Source of the DNA: a virus
Taxonomy: Duplodnaviria; Caudoviricetes
DNA: 64,000 nucleotides
Virus record (IMG/VR): IMGVR_UViG_3300033486_000001
Coordinates: 11,317 to 75,316 of that record
Strand: one strand, 5' to 3'
Part shown: piece after piece, positions 18,412 to 64,000 of the stretch
Position numbering within the stretch: the first letter of the stretch is position 1
Layout of the letters: each line of letters begins with the position of its first letter
Notes under the pieces: model-generated
Told to the model about the DNA's origin: nothing
The model's input: the letters and a program-made list of their open reading frames with translations, nothing else
Database searches by the model: none
Position numbers and translations under genes: made by a program

Positions 18412-18420
18412 TTGGTTCTC

Positions 18421-19353: not shown

Positions 19354-19380
19354 TCGTAATTCTCCTTGTTTGGTTCCACC

Positions 19381-19390
19381 ATTGTACCAC
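19381..19390 (-). promoter_or_regulatory. extended -10 motif GTGGTACAAT
   Basis: Upstream of dut; member of the recurring motif. Confidence 0.55.
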
Positions 19391-19393
19391 GGA

Positions 19394-47022: not shown

Positions 47023-48003
47023 ATGGATGCATTCTTAAACACGACCTTTCAAATTCAGGCTTACGCCGACCGTCCGGCCAACTCCAATCCGCGTCTGCGT
47101 GCGGTTGATTGGCGCCGGGATCTCTCCGGCCAAGCCGTATCTAACCCCAAGTCTGAATCCGTACAGCTTGTAGCCGGGGAAACTCGTACGCTCTTCAATG
47201 GACTTCGTACGACGACCTTGGACGGCACCACGGCGTTTACGATGTCGCTGTCGACTCTCGAGTCCGGCCGCTACCGCTTCACCAAAGTCGCTGGAACTGA
47301 CCCGAGTCTTCGCCCCAGCCGAGGGCTTACGCTCAATACAGTTGCTGTCACTGCCGTGGCGTTGGCCAACGGTTCGCTGACAATGACTGTACCCGGACCA
47401 GCCGCTTTCACCGGTGTCGTGGCTGGTGACATCGTGTTTGTCCCCAACACCAATACCGGTGACGCCGCCAACGTTTTCTCGATCTCTAATAGCGGATATT
47501 GGGTTGTGATGGCGGTGCTGTCTCCGCAGTCCCTGAGTCTCACCCGCCTCCCCGGCGCTTCCTTCGAGGGTGTGAGCGAAGTCGTAACGTTGACGTCTAA
47601 TGCGCAACTCCGAGCTTATTCTGCAGCCGGAGTGCAAGTCGATGACTCGGTGTCGATTTCGGCTGGATTCGCCACGGCCACGCAAAAGACATACGATGTA
47701 GTGGCCGTCACAGACACCTTCTTTGAAGTGCGCAGTTCACTCCCGCTCCCCCTTGAGTCGTCCGTCATCCCGACCGCGGTCGGCCTGGTGTTCTACTCCA
47801 GCGCGAAGAATTTCTTGTACGTTGAAGGCGACCAAGAGTTTGTAATCCGCCTCAACGGCTCTACGGACTCGACACAGCGAGTCTCACCGGTGTCGGCCGG
47901 AGAAATCCCCGGAGCATATTTCAAGAACGGTCCGACTTGGTCGCTGGCTGTAGTTAATATGTCTTCCACGTTGCTCAATTTGATGGTAATCGGAGCCGAA
48001 TGA
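47023..48003 (+). CDS. putative virion structural protein
   Basis: Beta-rich Thr/Ser/Val composition; between terminase and portal; promoter-like TGGTACAAT upstream. Confidence 0.6.
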   Translation: MDAFLNTTFQIQAYADRPANSNPRLRAVDWRRDLSGQAVSNPKSESVQLVAGETRTLFNGLRTTTLDGTTAFTMSLSTLESGRYRFTKVAGTDPSLRPSRGLTLNTVAVTAVALANGSLTMTVPGPAAFTGVVAGDIVFVPNTNTGDAANVFSISNSGYWVVMAVLSPQSLSLTRLPGASFEGVSEVVTLTSNAQLRAYSAAGVQVDDSVSISAGFATATQKTYDVVAVTDTFFEVRSSLPLPLESSVIPTAVGLVFYSSAKNFLYVEGDQEFVIRLNGSTDSTQRVSPVSAGEIPGAYFKNGPTWSLAVVNMSSTLLNLMVIGAE

Positions 48004-51440: not shown

Positions 51441-52052
51441 ATGAAAATCATACCTCCTTCAGCAGAACTCGTTTGGATCACCCCTAATGCCGCGCAAGTC
51501 ATTGAGATGGCTGCGCGCAAATGCTATGCTTCCGAAGGTCAGTATGACCCCGCCCGTACGGCCGATTTTTTAGACCGAGTAATCAACCAAAAGCACCATG
51601 AAAGCGTCATGGAGCACGCTAGTGCTTGCTTCGACATCACCACCGACCGTGGGGTGATGGCCGAACTCACGCGTCATCGCCTTGCTAGTTTTTCGGTGCA
51701 GTCAACGAGGTACTGTTCATATAACAAAAGTAAATTCGGTAGTCAAATCGAGGTGTTGGAACCGCCAGATCTTTCGTCTGAGATGAGGGTTATTTGGACC
51801 CAAGCCATGGAAGCTTCCGAAAGAGCTTACATGCAGATGTTGGAATTTGGAGCACAACCGCAAATTGCGCGCTCGGTACTCCCCAACGGCCTTGCAACCC
51901 ACATGCGAGTCACCGCCAACTTCCGTGAATGGCGCCACATCTTCTCTCTCCGGACGGACAAGGCGGCGCATCCGCAAATCCGTGAGGCTATGGAGATGGT
52001 GCAGGATTCCATGGCGATGCACGTCCCAGAGTTGTTCGGTTTCGAGTTTTAG
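51441..52052 (+). CDS. thyX: FAD-dependent thymidylate synthase
   Basis: HESVMEH, ELTRHRLASFSVQSTRY, ARSVLPN, NFREWRH. Confidence 0.95.
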   Translation: MKIIPPSAELVWITPNAAQVIEMAARKCYASEGQYDPARTADFLDRVINQKHHESVMEHASACFDITTDRGVMAELTRHRLASFSVQSTRYCSYNKSKFGSQIEVLEPPDLSSEMRVIWTQAMEASERAYMQMLEFGAQPQIARSVLPNGLATHMRVTANFREWRHIFSLRTDKAAHPQIREAMEMVQDSMAMHVPELFGFEF

Positions 52053-52056
52053 TTCC

Positions 52057-52088
52057 TTGACATCGGAACCCAACCCGCGGTAATACTC
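52057..52088 (+). promoter_or_regulatory. promoter-like element, copy 1
   Basis: TTGACATC-N5-CCAACCCGCGGTAATACTC. Confidence 0.65.
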
Positions 52089-52120
52089 GCCGTCAAACAC
52101 GCAATATAGAGGTCGTCCAA

Positions 52121-52369
52121 ATGACTAAGACAACTAAAACCGTTGCTGAGCACTACCCCTTGGGTACTCGCCTGATGCACCCCTCCTACCCTTGGAGTGT
52201 GTGGACCGTGAGCGAGGTGCGCGTGACCATTGACGGAGCCGGACACCACGTGGACTACGCGTTGGAGGGTACGGAGGTGCGTGGCGCGGCTCGCTGGTCG
52301 GCGGCGGAGATGTTCGTGCCAGCACCCGATGAATCGGCCTTTGAATCTCCCCACTACTTCGCCGACTAA
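52121..52369 (+). CDS. hypothetical protein
   Basis: GAGG RBS; flanked by the two promoter copies. Confidence 0.55.
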   Translation: MTKTTKTVAEHYPLGTRLMHPSYPWSVWTVSEVRVTIDGAGHHVDYALEGTEVRGAARWSAAEMFVPAPDESAFESPHYFAD

Positions 52370-52377
52370 ATCGGCCA

Positions 52378-52409
52378 TTGACATCACCATCCAACCCGCG
52401 GTAATACTC
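52378..52409 (+). promoter_or_regulatory. promoter-like element, copy 2
   Basis: TTGACATC-N5-CCAACCCGCGGTAATACTC, identical apart from the N5. Confidence 0.65.
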
Positions 52410-52446
52410 ATCCCATCAACGCAGTCCAAATCACGGAGAAAACACT

Positions 52447-53562
52447 TTGGCTACCATTGAAGTCGACAAGAACGATAAGTCTCTCGGCTATGACACGCTG
52501 AATCTCACTCAGGCGGCAAAGGCTCTGAAGTACTCGCTTGTGTCCAATCAGCCCATCAATCTCATCGGGCCTCCTGGCATCGGTAAGACGGCAATCGTGG
52601 CGGCTGCTATTGAAGGGCTCGACATGTCGCTTCTTACGTTCATCTTGTCATTGTGCGATCCTACAGACATCGGCGGGATGCCGGTGGTTGGGGTCAAGTG
52701 TGTCAATCGGATCCCCTTCGAGGCTCTCAAGATGGCTTGCGATGCACCACACGCACTCTTCTTTGACGAACTTACATGTGCACCGCCGCCAGTGCAGGCC
52801 GCTTCGCTTCGCGTCATTCTTGAGCGCTACGTCGGAGACTACAAGCTCCACCCCGGAACTCGCATCATCGCTGCGTCCAACCCGCCGGATCAGGCGGCTG
52901 GCGGGTACGAACAGTCTCTCCCCCTCCTCAGCCGTCTTACCCAAATCAAGGTGCTGCCTACCGTTGAAGAGGTACAAAATTACTTCTTCCAGCTTGGGTC
53001 CGAGGGTTCGACGTTGCGGACGTTGGCTGTCGACTTCGCAGCCACGCTGGAGATGGCTCCGGACTTGCTGGCTCTTGAGCCACCATCCGGTACTGTGGCA
53101 TCCGGCAAGCCATGGGGTAACCCTCGCTCGTATGAGCGCGGACTGAAGGTGTGCGCCTCCGCCATCGACGGTGGCGAGTCTGACACCAGTCCGATTTTTG
53201 CGGCGTGTCTTAGTGGCAACGTGGGGGACGACGCTGCTGCAGGTTTCATGACCATCCGCAAGATTCGCGATCAGCTCCCCTCCAAGAAGGAGATCGAAGC
53301 CAACCCCATGTCGGCGAAGCTCCCACAGGACGTCAACTCAGCCATCGCGGTGTTGGGCGTCCTCGCGCAGGTCTGCCAGACCGACCCCTGCCCAGCCAAC
53401 ATCTATGCCGACCGTCTTCAGCACGAGGTTCGCATGGCCGCCACGCGATCTCTCGGCCGCTACAAGATGAGCGATTACACCAAGTCGCCGTATTACAAGG
53501 AAGGTATCGCCGCCAGGAATCGTCTGTTGCAGACCCTTGGCAAGGCGATGAACAACCTCTGA
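52447..53562 (+). CDS. MoxR-like AAA+ ATPase
   Basis: GPPGIGKT, LFFDEL, IIAASNP, LLSRL, NPRSYE. Confidence 0.88.
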   Translation: MATIEVDKNDKSLGYDTLNLTQAAKALKYSLVSNQPINLIGPPGIGKTAIVAAAIEGLDMSLLTFILSLCDPTDIGGMPVVGVKCVNRIPFEALKMACDAPHALFFDELTCAPPPVQAASLRVILERYVGDYKLHPGTRIIAASNPPDQAAGGYEQSLPLLSRLTQIKVLPTVEEVQNYFFQLGSEGSTLRTLAVDFAATLEMAPDLLALEPPSGTVASGKPWGNPRSYERGLKVCASAIDGGESDTSPIFAACLSGNVGDDAAAGFMTIRKIRDQLPSKKEIEANPMSAKLPQDVNSAIAVLGVLAQVCQTDPCPANIYADRLQHEVRMAATRSLGRYKMSDYTKSPYYKEGIAARNRLLQTLGKAMNNL

Positions 53563-53601
53563 GTCGTTGACACTCAATTCGAATCCAAGTAAGGGTACCA
53601 C

Positions 53602-54825
53602 ATGTCAAACGCCACCATCGAGCGCTGCAAAGCCAACGTAGCTATGCTGGGGTTCATGCACCCGGCATTCCTAATGATCCACGCCCAAATCCGTGACAAA
53701 TACCGTATCGTTACGGCGGAGCAGGGGTACGGGACGATGGCAATGACATCGACGGGCTCCATCCTAGTCAACGAGAAGTTCGCCGCGAGTCTCAAGTCGG
53801 ATGAACTGCAAGGGGTATTGGCGCACGAGATGTTGCACTTGGTGTTAGGACATTGCCGCGCGAGCAACCGAGATCCATGGATCTTTAACGTCGCACAAGA
53901 CATGGTTATAAATGCGGCACTACGCAAGGACGGCATTAAACTCACACAGAGTGCCTTGTATCCGCCATCAGAATACACCGGTGACCTCTTCTCGGAGGCC
54001 GTGTACGAGTGGCTGGTGAAGAATCCACAGCATTTGCCCCAAAAAAAGAAGTGCGATAAGTGTAATGGAACCGGCAAGAAGTCGGATGGCACTGATTGCG
54101 ATTGCGATCAACAAGGAGACGCCGGAGCTGGTTGCGGCGTCGTTAATGAGGACGACTCAAATCCCGACAAACCGGACTGGAAGAAAATCTCCACTCAGGC
54201 TCGTATGCTTGCTCGCTCGGCCGGGATGGGCTCGTCTGCCATTGCAGCTCTTTTGGCTCCTAGAGTAGCGAAAATCGACTTCAAGCGCGTGATTCGACAC
54301 GGTTTTGAGGTGACTTCTTCTCGACAGCGTCGTGATTTTCAAACCTATGCGAAGCGCAATCGCCGCTCACCACCACAAGGTATTCAATTGCCAGGCTGGA
54401 CCGGGAATACGCCGTCCGTCTCAGTGGTGGTTGACGCTTCTGGCAGTATGGATCGTGAGTGGATCAACGTCATTGCCGCCGAAACTATCTCGCTCATGAG
54501 GACTTTTACCGGCGTCAAGGTGTTCCTGGCGGTGCACACGTCGGAATTGGTGTGGGCGGGGTGGCTGAACTCGAACGACACCTGGAAACTGAGTGAGGCC
54601 TTTGGCTTCAGCGGTGGGACAGACCCACAGCCGGCGTACGACGCCGTCCAGAAGGCTACTAAAGGTAGGTGTGACAATTTGATTCACTTCACCGACACGG
54701 AATTCGGATCTGAGTGGCCTGCCGTGCCAGCGAGGCATCTTATTGTAGGGGCTTTTGGTAGGAACATCTCCACCAAGCCGCCCCCTGGATCTCAGGTCAT
54801 TCTTTGTGATATGGGTGACCGATGA
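53602..54825 (+). CDS. metallopeptidase-like (HExxH) + vWA domain protein (DUF2201-type)
   Basis: VLAHEMLH, FNVAQDMVIN, VVDASGSM, GGTD, FTD. Confidence 0.85.
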   Translation: MSNATIERCKANVAMLGFMHPAFLMIHAQIRDKYRIVTAEQGYGTMAMTSTGSILVNEKFAASLKSDELQGVLAHEMLHLVLGHCRASNRDPWIFNVAQDMVINAALRKDGIKLTQSALYPPSEYTGDLFSEAVYEWLVKNPQHLPQKKKCDKCNGTGKKSDGTDCDCDQQGDAGAGCGVVNEDDSNPDKPDWKKISTQARMLARSAGMGSSAIAALLAPRVAKIDFKRVIRHGFEVTSSRQRRDFQTYAKRNRRSPPQGIQLPGWTGNTPSVSVVVDASGSMDREWINVIAAETISLMRTFTGVKVFLAVHTSELVWAGWLNSNDTWKLSEAFGFSGGTDPQPAYDAVQKATKGRCDNLIHFTDTEFGSEWPAVPARHLIVGAFGRNISTKPPPGSQVILCDMGDR

Positions 54826-55523
54826 ACCTCAAATTGAGCAGCGATTTTCATGACTACTATGATCACTTCTTCGATCTGAATGCCGAGCACACCCTCAGCC
54901 GCCGCATGACTGACGGCCCGAACAAGATCGAATCGTTCAAGCTTCTGACCTTGATGGGCATCAAGACGCCGATTTACGGCATGGTTTCGGACCTGTATGC
55001 TGACATGGTCGCCAAGTTCGGCGGCGTAGATGCAATCAAGAAGGATTCACACGACGAAGTGGTAGAATTGGTGGTGTACACCGACATTAACTCCCACGCC
55101 GGAGAAGGCAAAGTCAAGGTTTCAGTCAAGGAGGCCGTCGAGAAGTATCCGAACCACTTCGCCGTCCAATACATCCCGAATACCACCCAGATGTTCAAGG
55201 GCCGCTCGGAGAGGTTGCTTCAGATTGGTCGCAGGCGCATTTGGATGGAATATGTTTCCAAGGATAACTGGCAGTCGAACTGTGGTGACGTCAAGATTTC
55301 TTTGATCGCAGATGTCAAAATCGCCAACAACGACTTGGCTGAAATTCAACTGCCGCTGTACGCCATCGATTTTGTGGTGGCAGGCCGAGAGCGATTGGCT
55401 GTCGACTTCAACGTTGCACCTGGGTTGAAAGGAACCCCTGTGCAAGACCTGATTAAAAGTCAAGAAGTCGTCCGGCTCATCAAAGATCGTGCAATGGACA
55501 TTTTTGGTGTTCCGAGGTTCTGA
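54822..55523 (+). CDS. RimK-like ATP-grasp protein
   Basis: HAGEGK, VQYIP, WQSN, AIDFV..LAVDFNVAPGLKG (cf. RimK GVD..VMEVNASPGLEG). Confidence 0.55.
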   Translation: MNLKLSSDFHDYYDHFFDLNAEHTLSRRMTDGPNKIESFKLLTLMGIKTPIYGMVSDLYADMVAKFGGVDAIKKDSHDEVVELVVYTDINSHAGEGKVKVSVKEAVEKYPNHFAVQYIPNTTQMFKGRSERLLQIGRRRIWMEYVSKDNWQSNCGDVKISLIADVKIANNDLAEIQLPLYAIDFVVAGRERLAVDFNVAPGLKGTPVQDLIKSQEVVRLIKDRAMDIFGVPRF

Positions 55524-55526
55524 CTC

Positions 55527-55536
55527 GTGGTATAAT
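55527..55536 (+). promoter_or_regulatory. extended -10 motif GTGGTATAAT
   Basis: Intergenic, upstream of 55561. Confidence 0.6.
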
Positions 55537-55560
55537 AGCCATATCAACCAAGGAGTTGTA

Positions 55561-55854
55561 ATGACTATTGAGAATTCGGAAGTAATCCATTCCTGGAAGT
55601 CTAGCGGTAGTGTGTTTCTCGATGAGGTCGGTTTTCTCAAGCCGGGAAAGGCTCTCTATTTGTACAGCACTCCACCCGGAGCGATGTCAGAGTATATGGA
55701 GGGTGAAGCTCCCGTTGGACAGGCTGGGATTGCTGCTGTCATTTCGGATGATCTCCTTGAGGGTCGGATTTTGTACGCCATCTTGATGTCGCCACAAGAC
55801 ATTAAGGCATACAGGGATGAATGTGTCGCGAAAGAGACTATCAAGCTAGGGTAA
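55561..55854 (+). CDS. hypothetical protein
   Basis: GTGGTATAAT promoter and AGGAG RBS before ATG at 55561. Confidence 0.6.
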   Translation: MTIENSEVIHSWKSSGSVFLDEVGFLKPGKALYLYSTPPGAMSEYMEGEAPVGQAGIAAVISDDLLEGRILYAILMSPQDIKAYRDECVAKETIKLG

Positions 55855-55888
55855 GCGTCTTCAACCCAATCTTGCATGAGAGGTCTTC

Positions 55889-58033
55889 ATGCAAGCTTTG
55901 GCCAAAAATGCCGCACCAGCACCCGTCACGGAAGATGACACCATCATCGATGGCGTTCTTGCGTCAGAAGCGATCGACAAGTCCGGTGAAGTGCTTGATG
56001 TGGATGGCTGCGACATCACTGAATTCGATGAAGGTCGCGGACTCATCAATTACGAGCACAAGGACACCGGCCCGCAAGACATCATCGGAAAGATCCTTTA
56101 CGCCAAGAAAATCTTTTCCGCCAAAGATTGCATTAACGATCGTCAACGCAAGTACTGGGATGACCTCAAGCTTCCACTGATTTACGGCATCGTACGTCTA
56201 GCTGATGGAAGTGGACACTCTGGCGCCATCGCCGCCGCCGCCCGCATCCGCGACGACGTCAAACACAAAGAGCAGTCCAGGTGGGGCTTCTCGATTGAAG
56301 GTACGACCATCAAGCGCGATACCAAGACAGGCCGACTTCTGGTTTCCATCGCCAAACGATGTGCGCTCACCTTCAAACCGTGCAACGAAAGCGCCGCAAC
56401 AGGACTCATCTTTGACCCAGGCGCCAAGTCCGACTTGTTCCGCACTGCACCGTCAGAAGCTGCCTTTGTTGGCGGAGAAGAACTCGCCAAGACCTTCGCG
56501 GCTGGATCTATGGACGTCGCTCCATCGCAACTCACGGGTAATGCAGCGCTAGCGGTAGAAGACTTGGGTACCAGAGGCAAGCTGAGGTGGGCGCTGAGTA
56601 AGTGGGATCGCAAAACCCCACTTAAGTCGTTTCTCAAAATGCAAATGCCTGAGGCGGATCCGGCCTACCTAGACAATTTTGCCGACATGGCGGAGCGGTA
56701 CACAATCCGCAAGGCGCAAGAGTTGGCCGTCAAGAAGCACCTAGTCAAGTCTGTGGCTACAAAGGTGCTCGCGAAGGCGATCGACCAACACCGGGCAGAC
56801 GCTAAGGCGGCGATCATTGCCAAGATGGATTTGATGGGGGTTGAACTCCTAGAAGCCCTACAAAAAGCCGATCCACCCAAACCCGCGCCGTCAAGGGTGG
56901 GGCCGGTCGTTCGCAAGGCATCACCTCCAGAACCTGAAACTGTTACATTCAACGGTCGCACCGTCAAGCCGGGATTTGCTATCGCCGGTGAAGGCGACAA
57001 AAAGCAGCATCTACGCGTTCTCGAGCACACCCCGGAACACCTGATCGCCATCCCTAAAGAGAAAATCGGCGGCTGGCAAGCGTCGGATCTGCTCAAGCTT
57101 CCGCGCAACAAGGTCCCGGGCAATATCTGGATGACCCGCCCGCCGGAATACGTCAATACCCCAGCTGTAATCGATTCGAAAACCCACGGGTTGGTCGATT
57201 ACACCCACCACCCAGAAGTCCACGCGTTAATCCACGGTCTGGATATGGGTCAAGCAATCAAAACTGGTACGGTAGGCATGAAGGCGAAAGCCGGGCAAGC
57301 CGGCTGGGCGAAGAATGCTCAAGGTAAGCAAGTGTACGTCAAGCGAGACGACAACGAACGTCCCTTCGGAGAATCCAAGCGTGAGGCGCTGTACCACAAC
57401 CTCGCCAAAGACTTTTATGGGATGGGGAGGTACGTTACACCGACCGCTGCAGTGGTACACCCGACTACTGGACAACACTACACGGTGGTGGAACACACAC
57501 CGGGCGAGCACTTCAAGCACGGCGAGGGGCATCCGGAGATGTTGCAGAACTTGGCAGATAGCGGAGAACTCCACAAACTCGCCATCATGAACTCCATAGC
57601 ACATAATAACGATCGCCATCAGTTCAACTATATGCTTGATGACAAGGGCGGGATTAAGCTGATCGATCACGGATTGACTTTTAGTGCCGGAGGAGACAGC
57701 AAAGCTCCGACTACACCGCACTATCTGATAGATGGCGCAGGAAAACTCCCTAACCATCCAGAGGCGCAGAAGTGGGCTAACAAACTACTACACCCAGAAG
57801 CCCAAAAATGGCTGCCTAGGATGAACGTCCTCGTTCACCCTGAAGCCCAAAAGTGGTTAAGCAAACTCAAGCCGGCTGAGCTGGAACGCCAGATGAGTCA
57901 ACACGGTGTCCCACCAGAGTTCGTCCAAGAAGCGTCCAGACGTTTACAGGCGATTCAAAAACACGCTCAAGTCAATCCGAAAGCTAAGTTGTATCAGGCC
58001 TTGAACGCCCCCTTCGAAGGTGGTACAAAGTAA
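55889..58033 (+). CDS. prohead protease fused to a HipA/PI3K-like kinase domain
   Basis: N-terminus IDKSGEVLDVDG, INYEH (H57), GFSIEG (S135); C-terminus VYVKR (K485), REAL, NDRHQFN (D575), LIDHG (D593). Confidence 0.85.
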   Translation: MQALAKNAAPAPVTEDDTIIDGVLASEAIDKSGEVLDVDGCDITEFDEGRGLINYEHKDTGPQDIIGKILYAKKIFSAKDCINDRQRKYWDDLKLPLIYGIVRLADGSGHSGAIAAAARIRDDVKHKEQSRWGFSIEGTTIKRDTKTGRLLVSIAKRCALTFKPCNESAATGLIFDPGAKSDLFRTAPSEAAFVGGEELAKTFAAGSMDVAPSQLTGNAALAVEDLGTRGKLRWALSKWDRKTPLKSFLKMQMPEADPAYLDNFADMAERYTIRKAQELAVKKHLVKSVATKVLAKAIDQHRADAKAAIIAKMDLMGVELLEALQKADPPKPAPSRVGPVVRKASPPEPETVTFNGRTVKPGFAIAGEGDKKQHLRVLEHTPEHLIAIPKEKIGGWQASDLLKLPRNKVPGNIWMTRPPEYVNTPAVIDSKTHGLVDYTHHPEVHALIHGLDMGQAIKTGTVGMKAKAGQAGWAKNAQGKQVYVKRDDNERPFGESKREALYHNLAKDFYGMGRYVTPTAAVVHPTTGQHYTVVEHTPGEHFKHGEGHPEMLQNLADSGELHKLAIMNSIAHNNDRHQFNYMLDDKGGIKLIDHGLTFSAGGDSKAPTTPHYLIDGAGKLPNHPEAQKWANKLLHPEAQKWLPRMNVLVHPEAQKWLSKLKPAELERQMSQHGVPPEFVQEASRRLQAIQKHAQVNPKAKLYQALNAPFEGGTK

Positions 58034-58035
58034 CC

Positions 58036-59223
58036 ATGGACGCTTCCAACATCATAATGGTGTATCAGACCCACCCGCACGAATCGGGTGAAATCCATCA
58101 CGTTCTTGTGGCTAAACTCCTGCAAGTTCCTGGCCAGACCACGGTTTTGGAGGATCACACCCCGGATCACACATTCGATGAGGCTGCTGTAGATCCAGTC
58201 GCGCTAACCTCGAAGCTTAATGCAGCTCGCCGTTCGATGTACTTCAAGGTGTGCACACTTCAAGAACTCAACGAGGGTGAATACCCGGAACTTTTGTCGG
58301 AGGCGTTGCTGCCGCCAGCACACGGTCCCGAGTCTCGGTTCGATTATTTCCGCATTGGAATGCCGCAGCCGCAGATGTTGGAGTTCTATGAAGGTGAAGG
58401 TCATTTGGACGGACACCCATTGTCGGATGAAGAACTACAGCTCATCCACTCGAACATTGAGCAGGGTTTGGCGTCGCTCTCGTACCACAAGGACGAGCCT
58501 GAGTTGATTTCGAAGTCGGAGGACCTGGCGAAGGTCGAGCCTGGTCTGGAGGCAGCACTAGGTGGCCTCAGGGCTGCAGTGGCAGCTGGCCATGTGCACC
58601 CGGATGTTCTCAAGACACTGTCCGGGCATATTTTCAAGGATACCATGGTGCCTACATTAGGCAACAAGGTAGCATACGCAGACTTCCTTACCCGCCCGAA
58701 AGAGGGGGTTCATATTCGACTCGATGGGTCAAAATTCGGCGGCATCAATAAGCGCGCCGGATTTGAAACCGGCAACGAAGCGATTAAGTCTATGTTCGGT
58801 GCCGTTCGCTCAGCCCTCGACGAGAGTGTGGGACGGAAGCACGCCAAAGCCTTCAGGATCGGTGGGGATGAAGCGAGTCTTTTTGTACCCACCATTGAGC
58901 ACGCGGCTATGTTTCATCGCGCCCTTAAGCGCCATCTCGACGCTCTACCGTTAGTGGCCGGACAGAAGTTGGCGTTTGACATGGGTGTAGGTAAGACGCC
59001 AGAGGCTGCAGAGCAAGGTCTAATCAAGGCCAAGACGCATGGGAAGTCGATGAACTATCCACTACACGAGTTGCGCACACATGCCTACATCAATATCCCA
59101 GGACACGAAGGGCATTTACCTACAGAGATAGAGCAGCCTCCGAAGACTCCAGCGCCGACACCGACTCCGGCACAGCCAACGGAGAAGCCCGCCGAGCCAG
59201 CCACTTCAAAACCTGTTGGGTAG
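58036..59223 (+). CDS. GGDEF-like nucleotide cyclase domain protein in the head module
   Basis: DTMVPTLGNK, RLDGSKFGGIN (D230, N238), GFETGN (N247), FRIGGDEA (G276-A280), FDMGVG. Confidence 0.75.
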   Translation: MDASNIIMVYQTHPHESGEIHHVLVAKLLQVPGQTTVLEDHTPDHTFDEAAVDPVALTSKLNAARRSMYFKVCTLQELNEGEYPELLSEALLPPAHGPESRFDYFRIGMPQPQMLEFYEGEGHLDGHPLSDEELQLIHSNIEQGLASLSYHKDEPELISKSEDLAKVEPGLEAALGGLRAAVAAGHVHPDVLKTLSGHIFKDTMVPTLGNKVAYADFLTRPKEGVHIRLDGSKFGGINKRAGFETGNEAIKSMFGAVRSALDESVGRKHAKAFRIGGDEASLFVPTIEHAAMFHRALKRHLDALPLVAGQKLAFDMGVGKTPEAAEQGLIKAKTHGKSMNYPLHELRTHAYINIPGHEGHLPTEIEQPPKTPAPTPTPAQPTEKPAEPATSKPVG

Positions 59224-59238
59224 TTCCATGGGCCCCGT

Positions 59239-59274
59239 CGTTAATTAAAAAATCCGACACTTTTTTAACTAACG
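59239..59274. terminator. AT-rich hairpin between convergent transcription units
   Basis: CGTTAATTAAAAAA-tccgacac-TTTTTTAACTAACG, 14-bp stem with one mismatch. Confidence 0.5.
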
Positions 59275-59299
59275 CCAGCTCTTAGTAAAGTGGCCTTTA

Positions 59300-59572
59300 T
59301 TAAGACCGCCGGGCTTTTTCGCAAGTCTTACATCGCGACTGGTGCTTGTTGAAATGTAATAACTCGACTTCCACTGAGTGGCACGTGGAGCACTCCTTGA
59401 GCCCCATGGCGCGCATGCACTGCCTGCAAATGCCGTTACACCCGCAATGCGCCGGTAGATGGCATTCCTTGCACATGGTGATGTGAAAACCTTTGGATAC
59501 CGCCAGTTGATTCCGCTTGCAACGTAAGCAGGTTCGGCCGGGGTATGTGTCGTGACATGTGCGGCATCTCAT
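59300..59572 (-). CDS. Cys-rich putative zinc-finger protein
   Basis: Multiple CxxC pairs; ATGA overlap with the tnpB stop. Confidence 0.55.
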   Translation of the reverse strand: MRCRTCHDTYPGRTCLRCKRNQLAVSKGFHITMCKECHLPAHCGCNGICRQCMRAMGLKECSTCHSVEVELLHFNKHQSRCKTCEKARRS

Positions 59573-60675
59573 TGAGCCGCCTCGAGGAATTCTTTAGACT
59601 TATAACAGGTAGCCTCAACACTTCCGATCAATACCGACCCGGCTCCTTCTGCAAGGGCTTGGTGTTGCAAGCCGCGTTGCAAGATGTTGATTGCTGAGTT
59701 CACATCCCTGTCAAGGAATGCCCCACAATCGCACATCCATTCACGCTTATTCAAACCCGCCAATCCTCTCGGACCGGACTTTAGTCCACAAATGTGGCAA
59801 GTTTGGGTTGTAAAACTTTCGTCGACTTCCTTGTATATCGCGCCATTCCCAATGGACTTGTAGCGCAACATCTTACGGAAGTTAGACCAACCTACGTCAA
59901 GAACCGACTTGGCCATGGTGGTCTGAGACAATTTGCTAGATGAAACGTCTCCTACGAAAATATGGTTGTACTTCTTTGTGACGTCATTGGACAACTTGTG
60001 ATGAAAGTCTTTGCGGACATCCTTAATCTTTTGGTGAATTTTGCGGACTTGCTTGCGCTTGTTGGCGCGTTGCGCGATCGCGAGTTTACGGGCGTATTTA
60101 GACAATATGCGCGGATTGGCGATTTTAGTGCCATCAGAAAACGTAGCGAAGTTTTTGAGGCCGAGGTCGATGCCTACCGATGCGTCGCCGCTGCGCAATG
60201 AGGTTTCTGGGAGTTCAATGACAACATTCAGAAACCATCGTCCTTGCGAATCTTGGCTGAAACTGGAGCCGTACAGAATCCTTGCTTCTGTCGGAAGCGG
60301 ACGATCTGAGAATACTCGGAAGACGTGTCCCATAAAAACAAAGCTGCCGTCCCGATATTTTAAGGCAGCCGCCTTCATTGGAATCCACCCTAGACTTTTC
60401 TTCCCGCGCCACTTCAGCCAACGCTTATTACACTTAGCGCGACTTTGAACGTATTGTCTAGCTATTGCTTGAATCGAGTCGGAGTGTAGTCCGAGTTCCT
60501 TGGAACTCCCCGCCGTGAGGTGGTTCAAATCGAACTCGCCGAGCCATTTGCGACGAGCCTTAACTGCTTGCTGCTGCACATTGTTACAGTAGTTCCACAC
60601 AAAGTTGACCTTACGGGCGAGTCCGTTAAGAAACCCTTCGTAAGACTTGACTCTGTAGTGGTAGGTGAGTTGCAT
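59569..60675 (-). CDS. tnpB: TnpB RNA-guided endonuclease (IS200/IS605/IS607 family), no transposase adjacent
   Basis: VNFVWN, GRWFLNV, RuvC-I GIDLG, RuvC-II region FVGDV, VDESFTTQTCHIC, RuvC-III DRDVNSAINIL; ATG start at 60675. Confidence 0.92.
   Translation of the reverse strand: MQLTYHYRVKSYEGFLNGLARKVNFVWNYCNNVQQQAVKARRKWLGEFDLNHLTAGSSKELGLHSDSIQAIARQYVQSRAKCNKRWLKWRGKKSLGWIPMKAAALKYRDGSFVFMGHVFRVFSDRPLPTEARILYGSSFSQDSQGRWFLNVVIELPETSLRSGDASVGIDLGLKNFATFSDGTKIANPRILSKYARKLAIAQRANKRKQVRKIHQKIKDVRKDFHHKLSNDVTKKYNHIFVGDVSSSKLSQTTMAKSVLDVGWSNFRKMLRYKSIGNGAIYKEVDESFTTQTCHICGLKSGPRGLAGLNKREWMCDCGAFLDRDVNSAINILQRGLQHQALAEGAGSVLIGSVEATCYKSKEFLEAAQ
59573..59800 (-). ncRNA. predicted TnpB omega/reRNA (scaffold overlapping the tnpB 3' end, plus guide); boundaries approximate
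   Basis: TnpB omegaRNAs are known to overlap the 3' end of tnpB; segment 59614-59597 matches 60804-60821 at 16/18 nt. Confidence 0.45.
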
Positions 60676-60683
60676 TGACGATA

Positions 60684-60712
60684 CGTATACCACTCCGGTC
60701 CGCCACCGTCAA
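60684..60712 (-). promoter_or_regulatory. sigma70-like promoter of tnpB
   Basis: TTGACG-17 nt-(GTGG)TATACG, 8 nt before the ATG. Confidence 0.6.
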
Positions 60713-60801
60713 CCCACAAAACGCAAAAAGTGGGACTTTTCCATCCAACTCAACCATTAATACGTACCAAAGTTCAGACCTACGGGTCAAGGAGTACCAT
60801 A

Positions 60802-61248
60802 ATGGCTACCTGCTACAAGTCGGAAGTCCTCGCCGCGCAACTCAAGGACAATCTCTCGAAGTTCTTCGCCACCGTTTCTGAAGTTCTGTACCACACCGAT
60901 GGCACCCCCTATGTCACCGTCGGCGCAATGACCACGGGCACGCAGTCGGCTCTCGTTCGCATTTTCGCAGTTCAGCCCCTGGGTGTTGATGGCCTTGGCC
61001 AGACCCCTCGAAGCTTCGGCCCGAACTCGGTCCAAATTGCACTCGAGACGAGCGCAACCGCAAACCTCGCATTCCTCACTGCGGCCAACTCGGCGCTTCT
61101 TCTCCTTGAGGCCGGCAAGACTGGCGCCAAGGTTGAGTTGTACATGCGCGCAACTGGCACGCCTCCTGCCATCACAGACATCGTTGCAGGCAACCTGAAG
61201 GCGGAGTGGTACACCTCGACGAAGTGGAAGATGGCGTCCGCGAGCTAA
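60802..61248 (+). CDS. putative virion head protein, first gene of the scaffold-capsid unit
   Basis: AAGGAG RBS before ATG at 60802 (MATCYKSEVL); composition and position. Confidence 0.7.
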   Translation: MATCYKSEVLAAQLKDNLSKFFATVSEVLYHTDGTPYVTVGAMTTGTQSALVRIFAVQPLGVDGLGQTPRSFGPNSVQIALETSATANLAFLTAANSALLLLEAGKTGAKVELYMRATGTPPAITDIVAGNLKAEWYTSTKWKMASAS

Positions 61249-61273
61249 CCCCACGGAAGCTCTAGGAGAAACC

Positions 61274-62206
61274 ATGAAGATTAAAGAATCAGAACTCAAA
61301 GCAATTCTTGATGAGGTCGCAGCCGACCTCAGCAAGTGCTTCGAGGAAGAGAAAGAAAAGCTGACCAAGTCTTTTCCGGAAGGTAGCGCGTCCGAGGGCT
61401 CGTCTAGTTCAGACGAGAGCTCGAAGCCTGCAATCCCGGAAGGTAGCTCGTCTGAAGGCTCGTCTAGCTCGGATGAGGACTCGAAGGCTGACGGTTCTGT
61501 TCCTCCCCCGCCCCCAGCAGCTTCGCCTAGCCCAGCGGCTTCGCCGAGCGCGACAGCACCAGTTGCACCTCCTGCAGCACCGCCCGTAGCCGACCCGGCA
61601 GCTCCTGCCGCCGACGCCACGGCAGTTACGCCGGAAGTGTTGCACTCTGAGTATCTCAAGATGATGCAAGAGGATCCCGCACAGTTCGCGATGCACGTGC
61701 AGGCACTTGACGCAGTGAAGGCCGCAACAGCAGGCACTTCGCCTAGTCCCTCCCCCGCTCCCACAGCCCCAGTTGCTCCTCCTACGGATACACTGAAGGC
61801 AGAACTTCCCGCCAGCCCAGAACGAGCCGGTGGCGTCAAAGTGGAAGCCGTCCACAAGTCGGAGGATGTAAGCCGGTTTGAGTCGCTCATGAAGTCCTAT
61901 GAGTCGAAGGTAGCAGAACTCGAAGCCAAGCTCAAGAGCCAGGCTGATGAGCAAGTTGCCGTACAGCAAGTGTTGACCCGTATCGTCGAGCGCCCCATGC
62001 GCAAGTCGATCGAGTCAATTGCACAAGTCAGCTCGCCCGTCAAGGCAGTCGACGTGAGCAAGATGTCTAAAGAGTCCATCTCGACACGCCTCAGCGCCGC
62101 AGCACGAACCAACCTCAAGAAGTCCGATCGCAGTCTCATCAACGCTTACTACGGCGGGGAAGCCAAGCTCGAGCAGCTGGCCCACCTTCTCGAAGAAGTC
62201 AAGTAG
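61274..62206 (+). CDS. capsid scaffolding protein
   Basis: Low-complexity Ser/Pro/Ala, coiled coil, many xxK|S motifs; directly upstream of MCP. Confidence 0.65.
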   Translation: MKIKESELKAILDEVAADLSKCFEEEKEKLTKSFPEGSASEGSSSSDESSKPAIPEGSSSEGSSSSDEDSKADGSVPPPPPAASPSPAASPSATAPVAPPAAPPVADPAAPAADATAVTPEVLHSEYLKMMQEDPAQFAMHVQALDAVKAATAGTSPSPSPAPTAPVAPPTDTLKAELPASPERAGGVKVEAVHKSEDVSRFESLMKSYESKVAELEAKLKSQADEQVAVQQVLTRIVERPMRKSIESIAQVSSPVKAVDVSKMSKESISTRLSAAARTNLKKSDRSLINAYYGGEAKLEQLAHLLEEVK

Positions 62207-62230
62207 TACCAAGTTTTAAGGAGAATTACC

Positions 62231-63622
62231 ATGTCAGAAGTTACCCAAGCACTACTCAAGTCGTTGGAAGCCGGCAATTACGACGCGGCTCCCTCTACCC
62301 TTACGCAGGGCGCAGCACTCCAGCGTGAGGATCTCACCCCCATGATGGTCAATTTGTGCTTCGAAGACCAACACGTCAAGTTGCAGAACAAGCTGACCGT
62401 CAAGAAGGTGAAGAGCCTGATGTCGCAGTTCAACCGCACTCTGAGCTACGGCCAGATGGGCGACAGCGCGCAGCTCGAAGGCGCCGTTGGCCAAGACGAC
62501 AACGCAGACTACGTGAGAATTACAGTCCCGATGGCGTTCTACGCTCAGGTCCGACGCGTGTCTTACGCTTCGACCTTGATTGAGACGGCAGACGGCGTTG
62601 ATGCTCAGACGCGCGCTTCCGAAGCAGCAGCAATGGTCATCAAGGGCGACGTTGAGTTCGATTGCTTCCGCGGTATGGAAGGCTTCTCGAACGCAGGCGT
62701 TTTCGATGGCAATGAAATGGCTCAGCCTATGGTCCCCGGCATGAAGGGCCTGGATCAGCAGATTCGTTCGAGCGATTCCGAGCGTAATGCACACGATCTG
62801 ATGTTCGGCGAGTACGGCGCTGATGACTCGGTTGTCATCAACGGCGGCAGCTACCTCAGCCAGACCAACGTTGAGGACGCAACCCTCCGCAGCAGCATGA
62901 ACTGGGGCAATGCGACCAAGTTCCTGCTCGATCCCAAGACCCTCTCGGCGTACAACCTGATCACCCTCGGCAAGGAGCGCATCAACCTCGGCTCCACGGC
63001 GCAGGATGTCACTGGTTCAGAGCTTCGACGGCAGTTCACGTCGAGCGGCACTGCAACGTTCGAGCCCAGCCGCTTCCTCTCCGGCAAGACCAAGCCCAAG
63101 AATCCGAAGCAGGGTGGTCCCTCGGCTCCTGCCGCTGTGACTGCTACCCCTGCGGGCAGCACCACCAGCTTCCCCGCTGGCGATTACTGGTACTTCGTGA
63201 CCAGCGTCAACGAGATGGGCGAGTCTCCTCGCACTGCCATCGCAGCAGCAGCAACTGTTGCGGCGGCCGGCCAGGTCACCCTCTCCATCACCTCGCCTGG
63301 TACGGGCACGGTTCGTTACTTCAACGTGTACCGTAGCGTTGCCGGTGGAAGTCTCGCTTCGTGTAAGTTCATCGGCCGCGTGGCTGTGAGCAACACGGGC
63401 ACCACAAGCTACCTCGATCTAAACAATAGGAATCCGGCGTATACGACTGGATTCCTCGTGGACTTCGACTCGATGGACCTTGCCGAATTGGCCTCGTATT
63501 CGAAAGTTAAGCTGGCTATTCAGGACCTGAGCTTCCCTGAGGCTCACCTCCGATTCCTCGCTCTCCGAGTCTTCAAGCCCCGCGTCAACGTGCTCGTCGA
63601 CAACCTGATGGGTCGTAACTAA
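62231..63622 (+). CDS. major capsid protein (SPO1/Herelleviridae-like)
   Basis: LLKSLEAG..GAALQREDL, LEG..DYVR.TV.MAFY..RRVS, FN3-like insertion PSAPAAVTAT..YWYFVTSVN..FNVYRS. Confidence 0.85.
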   Translation: MSEVTQALLKSLEAGNYDAAPSTLTQGAALQREDLTPMMVNLCFEDQHVKLQNKLTVKKVKSLMSQFNRTLSYGQMGDSAQLEGAVGQDDNADYVRITVPMAFYAQVRRVSYASTLIETADGVDAQTRASEAAAMVIKGDVEFDCFRGMEGFSNAGVFDGNEMAQPMVPGMKGLDQQIRSSDSERNAHDLMFGEYGADDSVVINGGSYLSQTNVEDATLRSSMNWGNATKFLLDPKTLSAYNLITLGKERINLGSTAQDVTGSELRRQFTSSGTATFEPSRFLSGKTKPKNPKQGGPSAPAAVTATPAGSTTSFPAGDYWYFVTSVNEMGESPRTAIAAAATVAAAGQVTLSITSPGTGTVRYFNVYRSVAGGSLASCKFIGRVAVSNTGTTSYLDLNNRNPAYTTGFLVDFDSMDLAELASYSKVKLAIQDLSFPEAHLRFLALRVFKPRVNVLVDNLMGRN

Positions 63623-63645
63623 GTAGAATCGTTGAAGTAATTCAT

Positions 63646-63681
63646 GGACCCCCGAGAGAAATCTCGGGGGTCTTGTCGTTT
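63646..63681 (+). terminator. rho-independent terminator after MCP
   Basis: GACCCCCGAGA-GAAA-TCTCGGGGGTC followed by TTGTCGTTT. Confidence 0.8.
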
Positions 63682-63691
63682 CTGTAGGGGT

Positions 63692-63701
63692 GTGGTATAG
63701 T
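63692..63701 (+). promoter_or_regulatory. extended -10 motif GTGGTATAGT
   Basis: 7 nt before ATG 63709; TTGTCG at 17-nt spacing. Confidence 0.55.
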
Positions 63702-63708
63702 GCCAAGT

Positions 63709-63966
63709 ATGAACATTGGTAGACCTCGACAGTTCTCGGAGGAGTTCCGACAACAAATTCTGGCGCTACGCCGATCCGGGATGAGCATTGTCGAAGTCGG
63801 CCTACAACTAGGCATCAACAAGAAGAGCGTCGTCTATTTGACACCTCCAGAGTTTCTCGAGGAAGTGTCTCGACATGCGAATACGCCACCTTTGGTAAAA
63901 GCGTGGTTGACTTCCGGATACAACAAGAGTATGACTCTGGAAGAATTCTTGGAGGTCACAAAATGA
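63709..63966 (+). CDS. HTH protein with the shared C-terminal tag
   Basis: RQFSEEFRQQILALRRSGMSIVEVGLQLGINKKSV (HTH); ends ANTPPLVKAWLTSGYNKSMTLEEFLEVTK. Confidence 0.7.
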   Translation: MNIGRPRQFSEEFRQQILALRRSGMSIVEVGLQLGINKKSVVYLTPPEFLEEVSRHANTPPLVKAWLTSGYNKSMTLEEFLEVTK

Positions 63967-64000
63967 TTAAACTAACCAGTCAAGAGTCGTCGATTTTGGT

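Follow-up and report, generated by a model that had tools for sequence, protein, structure and literature searches.

The window analyzed here, a 64,000-nt stretch of DNA (IMGVR_UViG_3300033486_000001, positions 11,317-75,316; all coordinates below are window positions), belongs to a large phage akin to Myxococcus phage Mx1. Within its head module we identified a cyclase-like gene, and on our best reading it encodes a "polyvalent protein" type of cyclase, processed by the protease and delivered in the capsid. Judging from its structural model, the product is a real but unusual GGDEF-type nucleotide cyclase, with activity predicted. The capsid protease probably trims it, after which it would be packed in the capsid and reach the next host by injection. 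The full proposal, in which Mx1-like phages make a GGDEF precursor that is cut by the capsid protease, packaged, and injected as a cyclase with c-di-GMP as its default product, strikes us as about evenly balanced.

A cyclase-like gene in the head module

The cyclase-like gene is translationally coupled to the gene upstream (stop codon TAA at 58031-58033, ATG at 58036), and its product comprises an N-terminal domain, a linker, two helices, a GGDEF domain, and a tail (Table 1). The preliminary description had placed it in the head module, and a search for homologs in phage head modules bore this out: the relatives show the same gene order throughout. In all loci, which belong to Mx1-like phages of ~165-170 kb, the GGDEF gene lies between portal/protease and scaffold/MCP (major capsid protein) genes. 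Every locus reaching far enough has the order protease gene, GGDEF gene, ~148-aa gene, scaffold, and MCP.

Table 1 Features of the cyclase-like gene and its head-module neighbors
Feature	Position	Strand	Basis
Protease/kinase-like gene, 714 aa	55889..58033	+	PHROG 1028, fold, Pfam PI3_PI4_kinase
Cyclase-like gene (N-domain + linker + GGDEF), 395 aa	58036..59223	+	Open frame
N-domain, alpha/beta, residues 1-153, conserved VLEDH motif	58036..58494	+	AF2 pLDDT ~85-90
Disordered linker EPELISKSEDLAKV, residues 154-167	58495..58536	+	pLDDT <50, motif conservation
Two helices ahead of GGDEF core, residues 168-200	58537..58635	+	Secondary structure, VIA alignments
GGDEF domain, residues 201-355	58636..59100	+	Pfam, HMMER, fold comparison
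Disordered C-terminal tail rich in Pro/Thr/Ala, residues 356-395	59101..59220	+	pLDDT 45-54
Conserved head-module gene, ~148 aa	60802..61248	+	Follows GGDEF gene in all relatives
Scaffold-like protein, 310 aa	61274..62206	+	Low-complexity acidic/Pro-rich region, coiled coil
Major capsid protein, 463 aa	62231..63622	+	PHROG 752, E 1e-43

Mx1 was found by protein-level search only; megablast of the phage collection with positions 55000-64000 as query found nothing. Its "nucleotide cyclase" WNM70324.1, so far annotated only (PMC10720576), is the orthologue of the window protein (36% identity over 80% of the query) and likewise lies between a "putative prohead protease" and the major capsid protein. 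In Mx1, WNM70324.1 and the upstream hypothetical protein WNM70323.1 are split halves encoded by separate, coupled genes, with the break exactly at the linker.

The upstream protein begins with an assemblin/T4 gp21-like prohead protease domain (residues ~12-176), whose H57, H110, and S135 are invariant (alignment A2). The protein matches PHROG 1028 (E 2e-7), and fold alone identified the protease: the N-terminus drew no match in Pfam scans or in a profile search of the PDB, while structural comparison matched it to 5jbl (Z 9.5), the VZV protease (7.8), and the HCMV protease (6.3), the next unrelated structure scoring 4.8. At its end lies a PI3/PI4-kinase-like catalytic core, NDRHQFN...IDHG (nt 57566-57700); the score against Pfam PI3_PI4_kinase is 21.4 bits, and that of one relative (P0112) is 37.6 bits. 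Downstream of the GGDEF gene, ATG 60802 is likely the true start of the ~148-aa gene.

The GGDEF domain and its catalytic residues

Fold prediction, proposed as a check in the preliminary description, returned a GGDEF fold. The AF2 model has pLDDT >90 across residues 205-355, and its residues 194-362 match diguanylate cyclases (DgcZ, WspR, PleD, and others) at Z 17-18 (VIA), fitting the solved structures with an rmsd of 1.7-2.8 Å over 140-155 residues. Foldseek agreed (E ~1e-7, probability 1.0). A class III cyclase identity was set aside (Z ~12 vs 17-18), as was an mCpol/Cas10 palm cyclase identity (Z 11.7 for mCpol 9mnr); the window protein had no mCpol Pfam match at E up to 0.1. Sequence searches were less sensitive: phmmer against PDB sequences found nothing better than E 0.5-0.8, and the score against Pfam GGDEF (PF00990) was 21.6-22.8 bits (E 1.9e-4 at 21.6 bits), just below the gathering cut-off of 23.8 bits. 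That cut-off is passed by four of five related phage genomes, the orthologues in Mx1 and three complete relatives scoring 34-39 bits, and by all 10 of 10 long relatives (26.6-53.8 bits).

The preliminary description had also noted PleD-like residue spacing, and an HMMER alignment to WspR agrees: D230, N238, N247, and R-x-GGDE fall on the matching positions of the canonical pattern, D-x-D-x-F-K-x-x-N-D...G-D...R-x-GGEEF. By this spacing we take D230 (GAT, 58723), N238 (AAT, 58747), N247 (AAC, 58774), and R274 (58855) to be the equivalents of PleD D327, N335, D344, and R366. The metal-binding Asp, general-base Glu, and phosphate-binding Lys of PleD (D327, E371, and K442) have their counterparts in D230, E279, and K333. 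The signature loop, RIGGDEA (residues 274-280, nt 58855-58875; GGDEA at nt 58861-58875), retains the preceding Arg and four of the five signature residues, the fifth being Ala rather than Phe. An RxxD I-site is absent, with RKHA at residues 267-270 instead. Across the close family (alignment A1), D230, R274, G276, G277, D278, E279, and K333 (59032) are invariant.

Selection on the gene is strong. The protein has 23 close homologue clusters, and whole-gene dN/dS is ~0.06-0.07 for the window gene against loci L041 and L042; in the Asn/GGDEA subclade it is ~0.06, indicating strong purifying selection. The C-terminal tail evolves faster than both folded domains (dN/dS ~0.27-0.30 in two of three pairwise comparisons) and is variable or missing among relatives (alignment A1).

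The window protein thus shares with canonical diguanylate cyclases (PleD, WspR, DgcZ; PF00990) the fold, the metal Asp, the Asn335 equivalent, the R-x-GGDE loop with its general-base Glu, the phosphate Lys, and the stalk helices. Residues 168-200 align with the stalk/alpha0 helices of these enzymes, and VIA alignments to DgcR, DgcB, and WspR start at model residues 176-199. Unlike them, it carries Asn where they read guanine and Gly where they have K332, with a Lys following four residues on; its loop is GGDEA instead of GGDEF, NK takes the place of NRR, and the I-site is missing. Where canonical enzymes have a sensory or receiver domain, this protein has an N-domain known from phages only and a linker that looks cleavable, and its family sits in phage head modules.

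The full catalytic set is kept by 73 of 118 representatives and is missing in the other 45 (~38%), many of which have GGD[KRNGS]F, without the general-base Glu. Since these members still keep the fold, the N-domain, and the gene position, the conserved role of the family may not require catalysis. The protein could then be a non-catalytic occupant of the capsid whose GGDEF fold has a structural or assembly role, or binds nucleotides or DNA, within the head or within an ejected protein mass. Degenerate GGDEF domains do serve as binding modules, as in FimX and LapD, and both are among the structural matches of our model. The gene is also a fixed core member of the head block in every relative, and the window protein departs from the canon at three pocket positions and the fifth motif residue. 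This alternative is a real rival, although we consider it unlikely. In the window protein's own subclade, the metal, phosphate, and general-base residues are invariant under strong purifying selection, most representatives retain the whole set, and the domains fused to relatives (kinase, GNAT, and PBECR5 nuclease) are effector enzymes rather than structural modules.

Asn247 and the nucleotide pocket

Of the pair that reads guanine, the Asn335 equivalent is present as N238, while the Asp344 equivalent is Asn247, as the preliminary description had stated. Gly replaces Lys at the PleD K332 position and a Lys recurs one helical turn on, as K239, which suggests that the pocket was remodelled rather than abandoned. 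Among the 15 representatives with Asn, G235 and K239 each occur in 11 and F243 in 10; the same G-K-F pocket is found with Asp too. Across the 118 representatives, the specificity position is Asp in 92, a state that includes Mx1, Asn in 15, and Thr in 2. With Asp and Asn as the sole residues used in the close family, this position is under constraint. As for the middle residue of the motif, Asp is present in 109 of 118 and Glu in none; GGEEF is never used.

Such a pocket raises the possibility that the packaged cyclase makes an adenine-containing dinucleotide (3',3'-cGAMP or c-di-AMP) instead of c-di-GMP. This was the reading preferred in the preliminary description, and it is nested within our own. 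Asp is the standard partner of the guanine Watson-Crick edge, whereas Asn pairs with adenine (N1...H-N, N6-H...O); guanine-Asn Watson-Crick pairs number 0 in 446 structures, and exchanging Asp for Asn converts GTPases to XTPases (PMC3201857). The same position determines the product of Hypr GGDEFs (PMC6456294, PMC9140294), whose natural Ser/Thr variants occur solely in a GGDEF, not a GGEEF, background (PMC6456294), the only background in our family. The coincidence of Asn with the coordinated G235/K239/F243 change and the confinement of the close family to two residues also favor it, and a new product from the Asn pocket appears plausible on chemical analogy. A literature search turned up no biochemistry for a GGDEF with Asn at this position.

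Phylogeny weighs on the other side. Asp and Asn have interchanged at least five times among 37 close relatives, including between sister pairs (P0013 and P0014; P0019 and L018). Because the same G-K-F pocket accommodates either residue, this pattern resembles near-neutral drift rather than a fixed new specificity. Asn can, moreover, still accept one hydrogen bond from guanine N1-H. Altered specificity is therefore a tentative and, on present evidence, rather doubtful interpretation. The preliminary description had also pointed to Hypr GGDEFs with Ser at this position. In these enzymes (Geobacter GacA and Bdellovibrio Bd0367, makers of 3',3'-cGAMP) the variation does fall on the same position, and the window protein shares the Asp at the central motif position (D278) and an exclusively GGDEF background. 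It differs, however, in having Asn rather than Ser/Thr and no receiver domain, and in that its state is not fixed in the lineage. A residue gained or lost this often cannot be equated with a fixed Ser/Thr signature. From the alignments, Asn is a minority, repeatedly toggling state rather than a family hallmark.

A conserved linker with candidate cleavage sites

The linker carries twin hydrophobic-x-Lys motifs, ISK/SEDLAK/V (slashes follow K160 at 58513-58515 and K166 at 58531-58533), which are candidate sites for the prohead protease. These sites, already marked as candidates in the preliminary description, fall on the most conserved part of a segment predicted to be disordered. K166 is invariant and L164 nearly so in alignment A1, and for each of K160, E162, L164, and K166, the residue is retained by 75-82 of the ~90 representatives in which the column is filled. 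This conservation is far more than expected by chance.

Similar motifs occur elsewhere in the head module. The upstream protein has an ELAK/TF site after its protease domain and then repeats the N-arm motif of the MCP (nt 56474-56578), and the scaffold-like protein has LTK/SF and VHK/SED. The MCP N-terminus, ...ALLK/SLEAGNYDAAPSTL, is variable before the Lys and conserved after it in all relatives. In its strict form, hydrophobic-x-K-[SA]-E-[ED], the motif is nearly confined to scaffolds and the linkers of GGDEF proteins. Counting every conserved Lys with a hydrophobic residue at -2 did not discriminate, as such sites are frequent within folded domains too, and this generic measure was dropped. 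The informative evidence is the stricter motif together with its position and context; the argument for cleavage does not stand on statistics alone. The prohead proteases of T4 and giant phages such as SPN3US and phiKZ cleave after Glu, whereas the candidate motif here is hydrophobic-x-Lys.

The N-domain family and its fusions

The N-domain ahead of the linker, described at the outset as unknown, has no Pfam, PHROG, or named ESM Atlas relative. An ESM Atlas search with this domain gave no feature match, and its structural neighbors had TM scores of at most 0.5. PHROGs likewise contain no family for the 395-aa protein. In a VIA search with the whole model, the matches were all taken up by the GGDEF domain. 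The N-domain profile (A3) recovered 310 representative clusters at 50% identity. Among the best 150 of these, 119 have N-domain and GGDEF together and 31 the N-domain alone, nearly all of the latter being short stand-alone forms, as in Mx1. Given this almost exclusive tie to GGDEF, capsid targeting need not be the function of the N-domain. Cellular genomes essentially lack the family: a scan of cellular contigs yielded mostly unrelated GGDEFs and one true member, in a MAG contig. Complete phage genomes carry one GGDEF gene each, and no EAL gene was found in them.

In 23 of the best 150 representatives (~15%), protease and N-domain form one polypeptide: 22 are Protease-Ndom-GGDEF fusions (loci L023 and L025, for example) and one more is Protease-Ndom. 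The fusion P0112 adds a PI3/PI4-kinase domain, and other members add PBECR5, GNAT, DUF3626, or fvmX5 domains. The preliminary description had proposed that the protein acts with the adjacent kinase-like gene product, and a functional tie gains support because relatives carry protease, N-domain, GGDEF, and PI3/PI4-kinase in one polypeptide.

These architectures recall the polyvalent proteins that Iyer, Burroughs, Anand, de Souza, and Aravind (2017) described from phages and conjugative elements. Polyvalent proteins are predicted virion-delivered multi-effector polypeptides encoded beside virion genes, whose components include GGDEF, kinase, GNAT, PBECR, and assemblin-like peptidase; appended domains such as PBECR5, GNAT, DUF3626, and fvmX5 are typical of them (PMC5512222). 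Relatives of the window protein show such fusions, and the window locus is late/virion-placed with a processing peptidase of assemblin/gp21 fold. Here, however, neighboring genes linked by translational coupling mostly encode the effectors separately; the assemblin-like protease lies at the N-terminus, whereas polyvalent proteins are reported to have it always at the C-terminus; and the kinase is PI3/PI4-like rather than of the truncated Ser/Thr kinase clade (PMC5512222). In the polyvalent-protein paper we found no description of a dedicated N-domain with a twin-Lys linker (PMC5512222). A parallel for the processing is offered by the T4 Alt/internal proteins, which become part of the procapsid, are shortened by the gp21-type protease at short consensus sites, and leave with the ejected DNA (PMC5512222). 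Ejection proteins of giant phages such as SPN3US/phiKZ are also procapsid cargo that such a protease trims at a short consensus before ejection with the DNA (PMC10052503, PMC7411985). Unlike the cargo of T4, SPN3US, and phiKZ, the cargo here is a predicted cyclic-dinucleotide synthase. On these grounds virion delivery of the GGDEF protein is well motivated, and we infer it.

The same gene position would also suit a late cytoplasmic cyclase that is not packaged, is co-transcribed with head genes for timing, and raises dinucleotide levels in the producing cell, perhaps to modify pili or surface polysaccharide, to exclude superinfecting phages, or to set the time of lysis. A late-operon position is by itself no proof of packaging, and GGDEF genes are annotated outside head modules in Bacillus phage G (gp350), SP-15, and Bordetella phage CN1. 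We nonetheless regard this account as improbable: it sits poorly with the recurrent fusion to a prohead protease, which must be inside the procapsid, with a conserved, cleavable-looking linker that shares motifs with scaffold and MCP, and with fusions to polyvalent-protein domains. The preliminary description had further suggested a GTP sink or decoy, here a producer of decoy nucleotides against host CBASS or type III CRISPR rather than a lifestyle signal, but the points in its favor (no RxxD I-site and hence no product inhibition; a M. xanthus CBASS/type III-B island that blocks Mx4 and does not restrict Mx1 (PMC11506125); an Acb5-like gene nearby in one relative; mCpol as a palm-domain cyclase able to make decoy nucleotides (PMC12657218)) are purely circumstantial and none is specific, the domain is far closer to diguanylate cyclases than to mCpol, and no link between the gene and a defence system was found, so that we consider the idea highly improbable.

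Discussion

For the protease-processed, capsid-delivered cyclase, the analysis shows the fold, the residue inventory, the synteny, the fusions, the motif conservation, and the purifying selection. We infer that the protein is packaged, where exactly it is cut, that it is catalytically active, what it makes, and what it targets in the host, and propose the following course. The GGDEF precursor would be translated together with the prohead protease/kinase-like protein and enter the procapsid, where the prohead protease would cut the linker after K160 and/or K166. The cut would free the N-domain from a mature fragment (residues ~167-395) composed of stalk helices and GGDEF domain, which would accompany the DNA on its entry into the next host cell. 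As a dimer, the fragment would there join two purine NTPs to form a cyclic dinucleotide, by default c-di-GMP, although the Asn247 pocket may also admit ATP. Lacking an I-site, the proposed cyclase would be free of product feedback. Host second-messenger signalling would thus be rewired from the first minutes of infection, alongside a co-delivered kinase-like domain. Our literature search found no virion proteome or N-terminal mapping of Mx1-like phages.

A more elaborate version, which we think quite unlikely, treats the precursor as a zymogen. The N-domain would keep the cyclase silent in the producing cell, and the protease would free it in the capsid, so that the injected enzyme would be immediately active. 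Asp/Asn toggling between phage lineages would then switch the product between c-di-GMP and an adenine-containing dinucleotide, in an arms race with host circuits such as the myxobacterial cGAMP/c-di-GMP lifestyle circuits or CBASS.

Cyclic dinucleotides govern motility, surface polysaccharides, development, and anti-phage immunity. We know of no phage shown experimentally to inject a cyclic-dinucleotide synthase, nor of any experimentally shown example of such an enzyme being packaged. For the protease-processed, capsid-delivered cyclase that we favor, the genomic context tells more than the Asn residue does. The natural Asp/Asn series in orthologous proteins is nevertheless a ready-made experiment on substrate choice by GGDEF domains, and the twin hydrophobic-x-Lys motifs provide a candidate cleavage code for the prohead protease of Mx1-like phages. 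The N-domain/GGDEF family is large, phage-restricted, and physically tied to the capsid protease. One member, Mx1, can be cultivated, and its host, Myxococcus xanthus, is genetically tractable, so that direct tests of a virion-delivered second-messenger enzyme are within reach.

Domain layout, fold and active site

The gene lies on an IMG/VR viral contig of 75.3 kb (estimated completeness ~46%), of which the window covers 64 kb. Its ORF starts 2 nt past the stop of the 714-aa gene upstream, and the ribosome-binding site, GAAGGTGG, falls within that gene. Pfam matched GGDEF to residues 223-307 (E 1.9e-4) at 21.6 bits, slightly lower than the cut-off of 23.8 bits, and PHROGs held no family for the protein. 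We modeled it with AF2 using 22 homologues as input (mean pLDDT 83). The modeled core matched solved diguanylate cyclases (DgcZ, WspR, PleD, DgcB and others; Z 17-18, rmsd 1.7-2.8 Å over 140-155 residues), with lower scores for class III cyclases (~Z 12) and Panoptes mCpol (Z 11.7), and Foldseek agreed with the diguanylate cyclase match. The predicted fold is thus that of a GGDEF domain, as the preliminary description had proposed.

PleD equivalences were derived from a HMMER alignment to WspR and canonical motif spacing, and the codons were checked. We take D230, N238 and N247 to be PleD D327, N335 and D344, and R274, G276-G277-D278-E279-A280 and K333 to be R366, GGEEF and K442. D230, N238, G242, G246, R274, G276, G277, D278, E279 and K333 were invariant among 23 aligned clusters. 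The GGDEF domain has no RxxD I-site, residues 267-270 reading RKHA. The residues originally described were right in every detail, judging by the Pfam and fold matches, the WspR alignment and the codons.

Features of the head module and domains of the GGDEF protein (nucleotides of the window unless residues are stated)
Feature	Position	Strand	Remarks
HNH/homing-endonuclease-like gene	43705-44832	+	PHROG 559, E 1.5e-39; directly upstream of large terminase gene
Large terminase	44836-46722	+	PHROG similarity confined to C-terminal half
Portal	48000-51422	+	1140 aa; similarity in residues 87-415 and 878-977
Portal-protease interval	51441-54825	+	ThyX (Thy1; 157.9 bits) and the two genes below
MoxR/CobS-like AAA ATPase	52447-53562	+	
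DUF2201 metallopeptidase/VWA protein	53602-54825	+	
Large partner protein	55889-58033	+	Counterpart of the 665-1340-aa protein
MCP N-arm motif copy	56474-56578	+	In partner protein
GGDEF-protein ORF	58036-59223	+	395 aa
N-domain	residues 1-153		alpha/beta (AF2)
Linker	residues 154-167		Low confidence (AF2)
Two helices	residues 168-200		AF2
GGDEF-type core	residues about 205-355		pLDDT >90 (AF2)
C-terminal tail	after GGDEF core		Disordered, Pro/Thr-rich (AF2)
Solo TnpB	59569-60693	-	OrfB_IS605 + Cas12f1-like TNB; PHROG 506, E 1e-68
MCP N-arm motif	62231-62340		In MCP

A conserved family in phage head modules

A word-indexed search recovered 23 homologue clusters (34-99% identity), most of them already assigned to Pfam GGDEF. 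Cellular genomes were nearly devoid of the family (a single member, in a MAG contig), and the only isolate with a homologue was Myxococcus phage Mx1, whose genome is 169.6 kb. In Mx1, the N-domain is a 150-aa hypothetical protein and the GGDEF part is annotated as a 243-aa "nucleotide cyclase"; their separate genes overlap by one base and divide exactly at the linker. The paper announcing the Mx1 genome describes no functional experiments. GGDEF genes occur exactly once per genome in the complete relatives, and no EAL gene was found in any of them. Purifying selection on the gene is strong: comparing the window's gene with two relatives of the Asn/GGDEA subclade gave dN/dS of ~0.06-0.07 in both folded domains, an approximate ratio given saturated dS.

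Across JGI, ENA, Logan and IMG/VR (contigs up to 165-171 kb), every locus extending far enough showed the same gene order: portal, a large protein (665-1340 aa), the GGDEF protein, a ~148-aa protein, a scaffold-like protein and a 460-470-aa MCP. This constant order bears out the head-module location claimed for the gene and places its homologues in phage head modules as well.

The window's module also contains additional elements. TnpB separates the GGDEF gene from the ~148-aa head gene. Relatives mostly have ~300-500 nt of intergenic DNA there (up to ~2 kb in a few), and TnpB appears to have been inserted into the head operon. The portal, about 696 aa in relatives, is divided by an insert (residues about 469-707) that matches Intein_splicing and LAGLIDADG_3 and is probably a homing-endonuclease intein. 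A weak Intein_splicing match (E 1.3e-3, residues 500-907) in P0150, a 1672-aa representative protein combining protease, N-domain and GGDEF, suggests that inteins may invade the cargo polyprotein as well. The portal-protease interval holds only two small genes in relatives such as L005, a related locus (Logan SRR29078206). Downstream of its MCP (15969-20972), L005 encodes HopBF1_kinase-like genes, a ribosomal L12-like gene and an Acb5 (anti-CBASS) family gene; these phages thus devote genes beside the head module to host signalling and anti-defence.

Association with a prohead protease and kinase

Sequence searches with the N-terminus of the upstream partner found no protease family. Its first ~180 residues contain invariant H57, H110 and S135, and their AF2 model best matched the T4 prohead protease gp21 (5jbl, Z 9.5), followed by assemblins of VZV (Z 7.8), HCMV (Z 6.3) and KSHV (Z 4.6; next unrelated chain, Z 4.8). 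PHROG 1028 ("head maturation protease") also matches the protein (E 2e-7). The C-terminal part has a PI3/PI4-kinase-type catalytic core, NDRHQFN...IDHG, scoring 21.4 bits in the window and 37.6 bits, exceeding the cut-off, in the relative P0112; the adjacent kinase of the preliminary description is therefore real.

Searching 1.84 billion representative proteins with an N-domain-only profile yielded 310 clusters at E <=1e-3 (252 at E <=1e-10). Among the best 150 of the 310, the N-domain was joined to GGDEF in 97, and protease, N-domain and GGDEF formed one polypeptide in 22, a form exemplified by loci L023 and L025; one had protease and N-domain, and 31 had the N-domain alone, nearly all of 146-236 aa and either split as in Mx1 or truncated. 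P0112 (1704 aa) unites protease, N-domain, GGDEF and PI3/PI4-kinase, and other members add a PBECR5 nuclease, two GNATs, DUF3626 or fvmX5. Since the N-domain almost never occurs without GGDEF, it appears to be the cyclase's own partner (a pro-domain, chaperone or regulator) and not a tag that directs proteins to the capsid in general. Prohead proteases act in the procapsid interior, and the cyclase is repeatedly made within a protease polyprotein; the N-domain/GGDEF unit is therefore very likely procapsid cargo. These fused architectures are those of polyvalent proteins, which are predicted to be delivered with the virion and whose components include GGDEF, kinases, GNATs, PBECR domains and assemblin-like peptidases (Iyer et al. 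2017, PMC5512222).

Although predicted to be disordered, the linker is among the best-conserved stretches of the protein (consensus [ILVM]-x-K-[MAS]-E ... L-x-K-[AIS]-[ED]-P), with K160, E162, L164 and K166 each present in 75-82 of ~90 representatives (filled columns only). Similar sites occur in other head proteins: the MCP begins with a variable-length stretch ending in L-x-K before a conserved [AS]-[LM]-E-A-G-N-Y, and the scaffold has one about 30 residues in, often as a tandem pair. The strict motif hydrophobic-x-K-[SA]-E-[ED] was found in 7 scaffolds and 7 GGDEF linkers, against 2 occurrences in all other head-module proteins examined; a looser hydrophobic-x-Lys count did not discriminate. 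Together, the conserved disordered linker, the like sites and the restriction of the strict motif give good grounds to infer cleavage after K160 and/or K166, and the Mx1 gene split is consistent with two mature products. Just past the protease domain, the partner has another such site, E-L-A-K|T-F-A-A-G, after which it repeats the MCP N-arm motif (AG-x-x-D/N-x-AP-S-x-L-T-x-G-x-AL-x-x-EDL), a copy kept in most aligned relatives. This copy may dock the kinase-bearing fragment inside the shell or serve as a shared protease recognition element.

Base specificity and catalysis

Of 118 representative GGDEF domains, 92 carry Asp as the D344-equivalent residue, 15 carry Asn, 2 Thr and 2 Glu. Asp is the usual residue for reading the Watson-Crick edge of guanine, and the pairing partner of Asn is adenine; guanine-Asn Watson-Crick pairs numbered 0 in 446 complexes, and Asp to Asn converts GTPases into XTPases (PMC3201857). 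In Hypr GGDEFs, Ser/Thr at this position decides between cGAMP and c-di-GMP, and these variants are confined to a GGDEF rather than GGEEF background (PMC6456294, PMC9140294); the present family likewise has GGDEF (109/118) and never GGEEF. This chemistry, precedent and background make an altered or widened purine preference plausible. Asn is accompanied by G235 (for the K332 lysine) in 11 of 15 cases, K239 (for D336) in 11 and F243 (for H340) in 10. The pocket lysine has apparently shifted by one helical turn, which speaks for a reshaped site over a dead one. The identical pocket also occurs with Asp, and a tree of 37 close relatives requires at least 5-6 D/N changes, some between sister sequences. 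With the residue toggling repeatedly, a stable new specificity is less probable than originally assumed, and we consider a change of base specificity through the Asn pocket unlikely, chemically reasonable as it is.

A conserved non-catalytic role in the head, though likewise not the more probable reading, is a serious rival. The whole catalytic inventory is invariant in the window's own subclade; however, only 73 of the 118 representatives retain an intact catalytic set, and many of the others read GGD[K/R/N/G/S]F and thus lack the general-base Glu. The reading we favor, with middling confidence, is a capsid-packaged, protease-processed GGDEF cyclase co-delivered with a kinase-like effector, a split version of a polyvalent protein. 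The earlier interpretation is thus supported in part, with its head module and adjacent kinase kept.

Mx1 evades the CBASS/type III island of M. xanthus (PMC11506125); we found no connection between the GGDEF gene and this escape. Proteins of this kind have already been predicted computationally. This one has an unusually clear, testable anatomy, and Mx1 and M. xanthus offer a cultivable model for the family.
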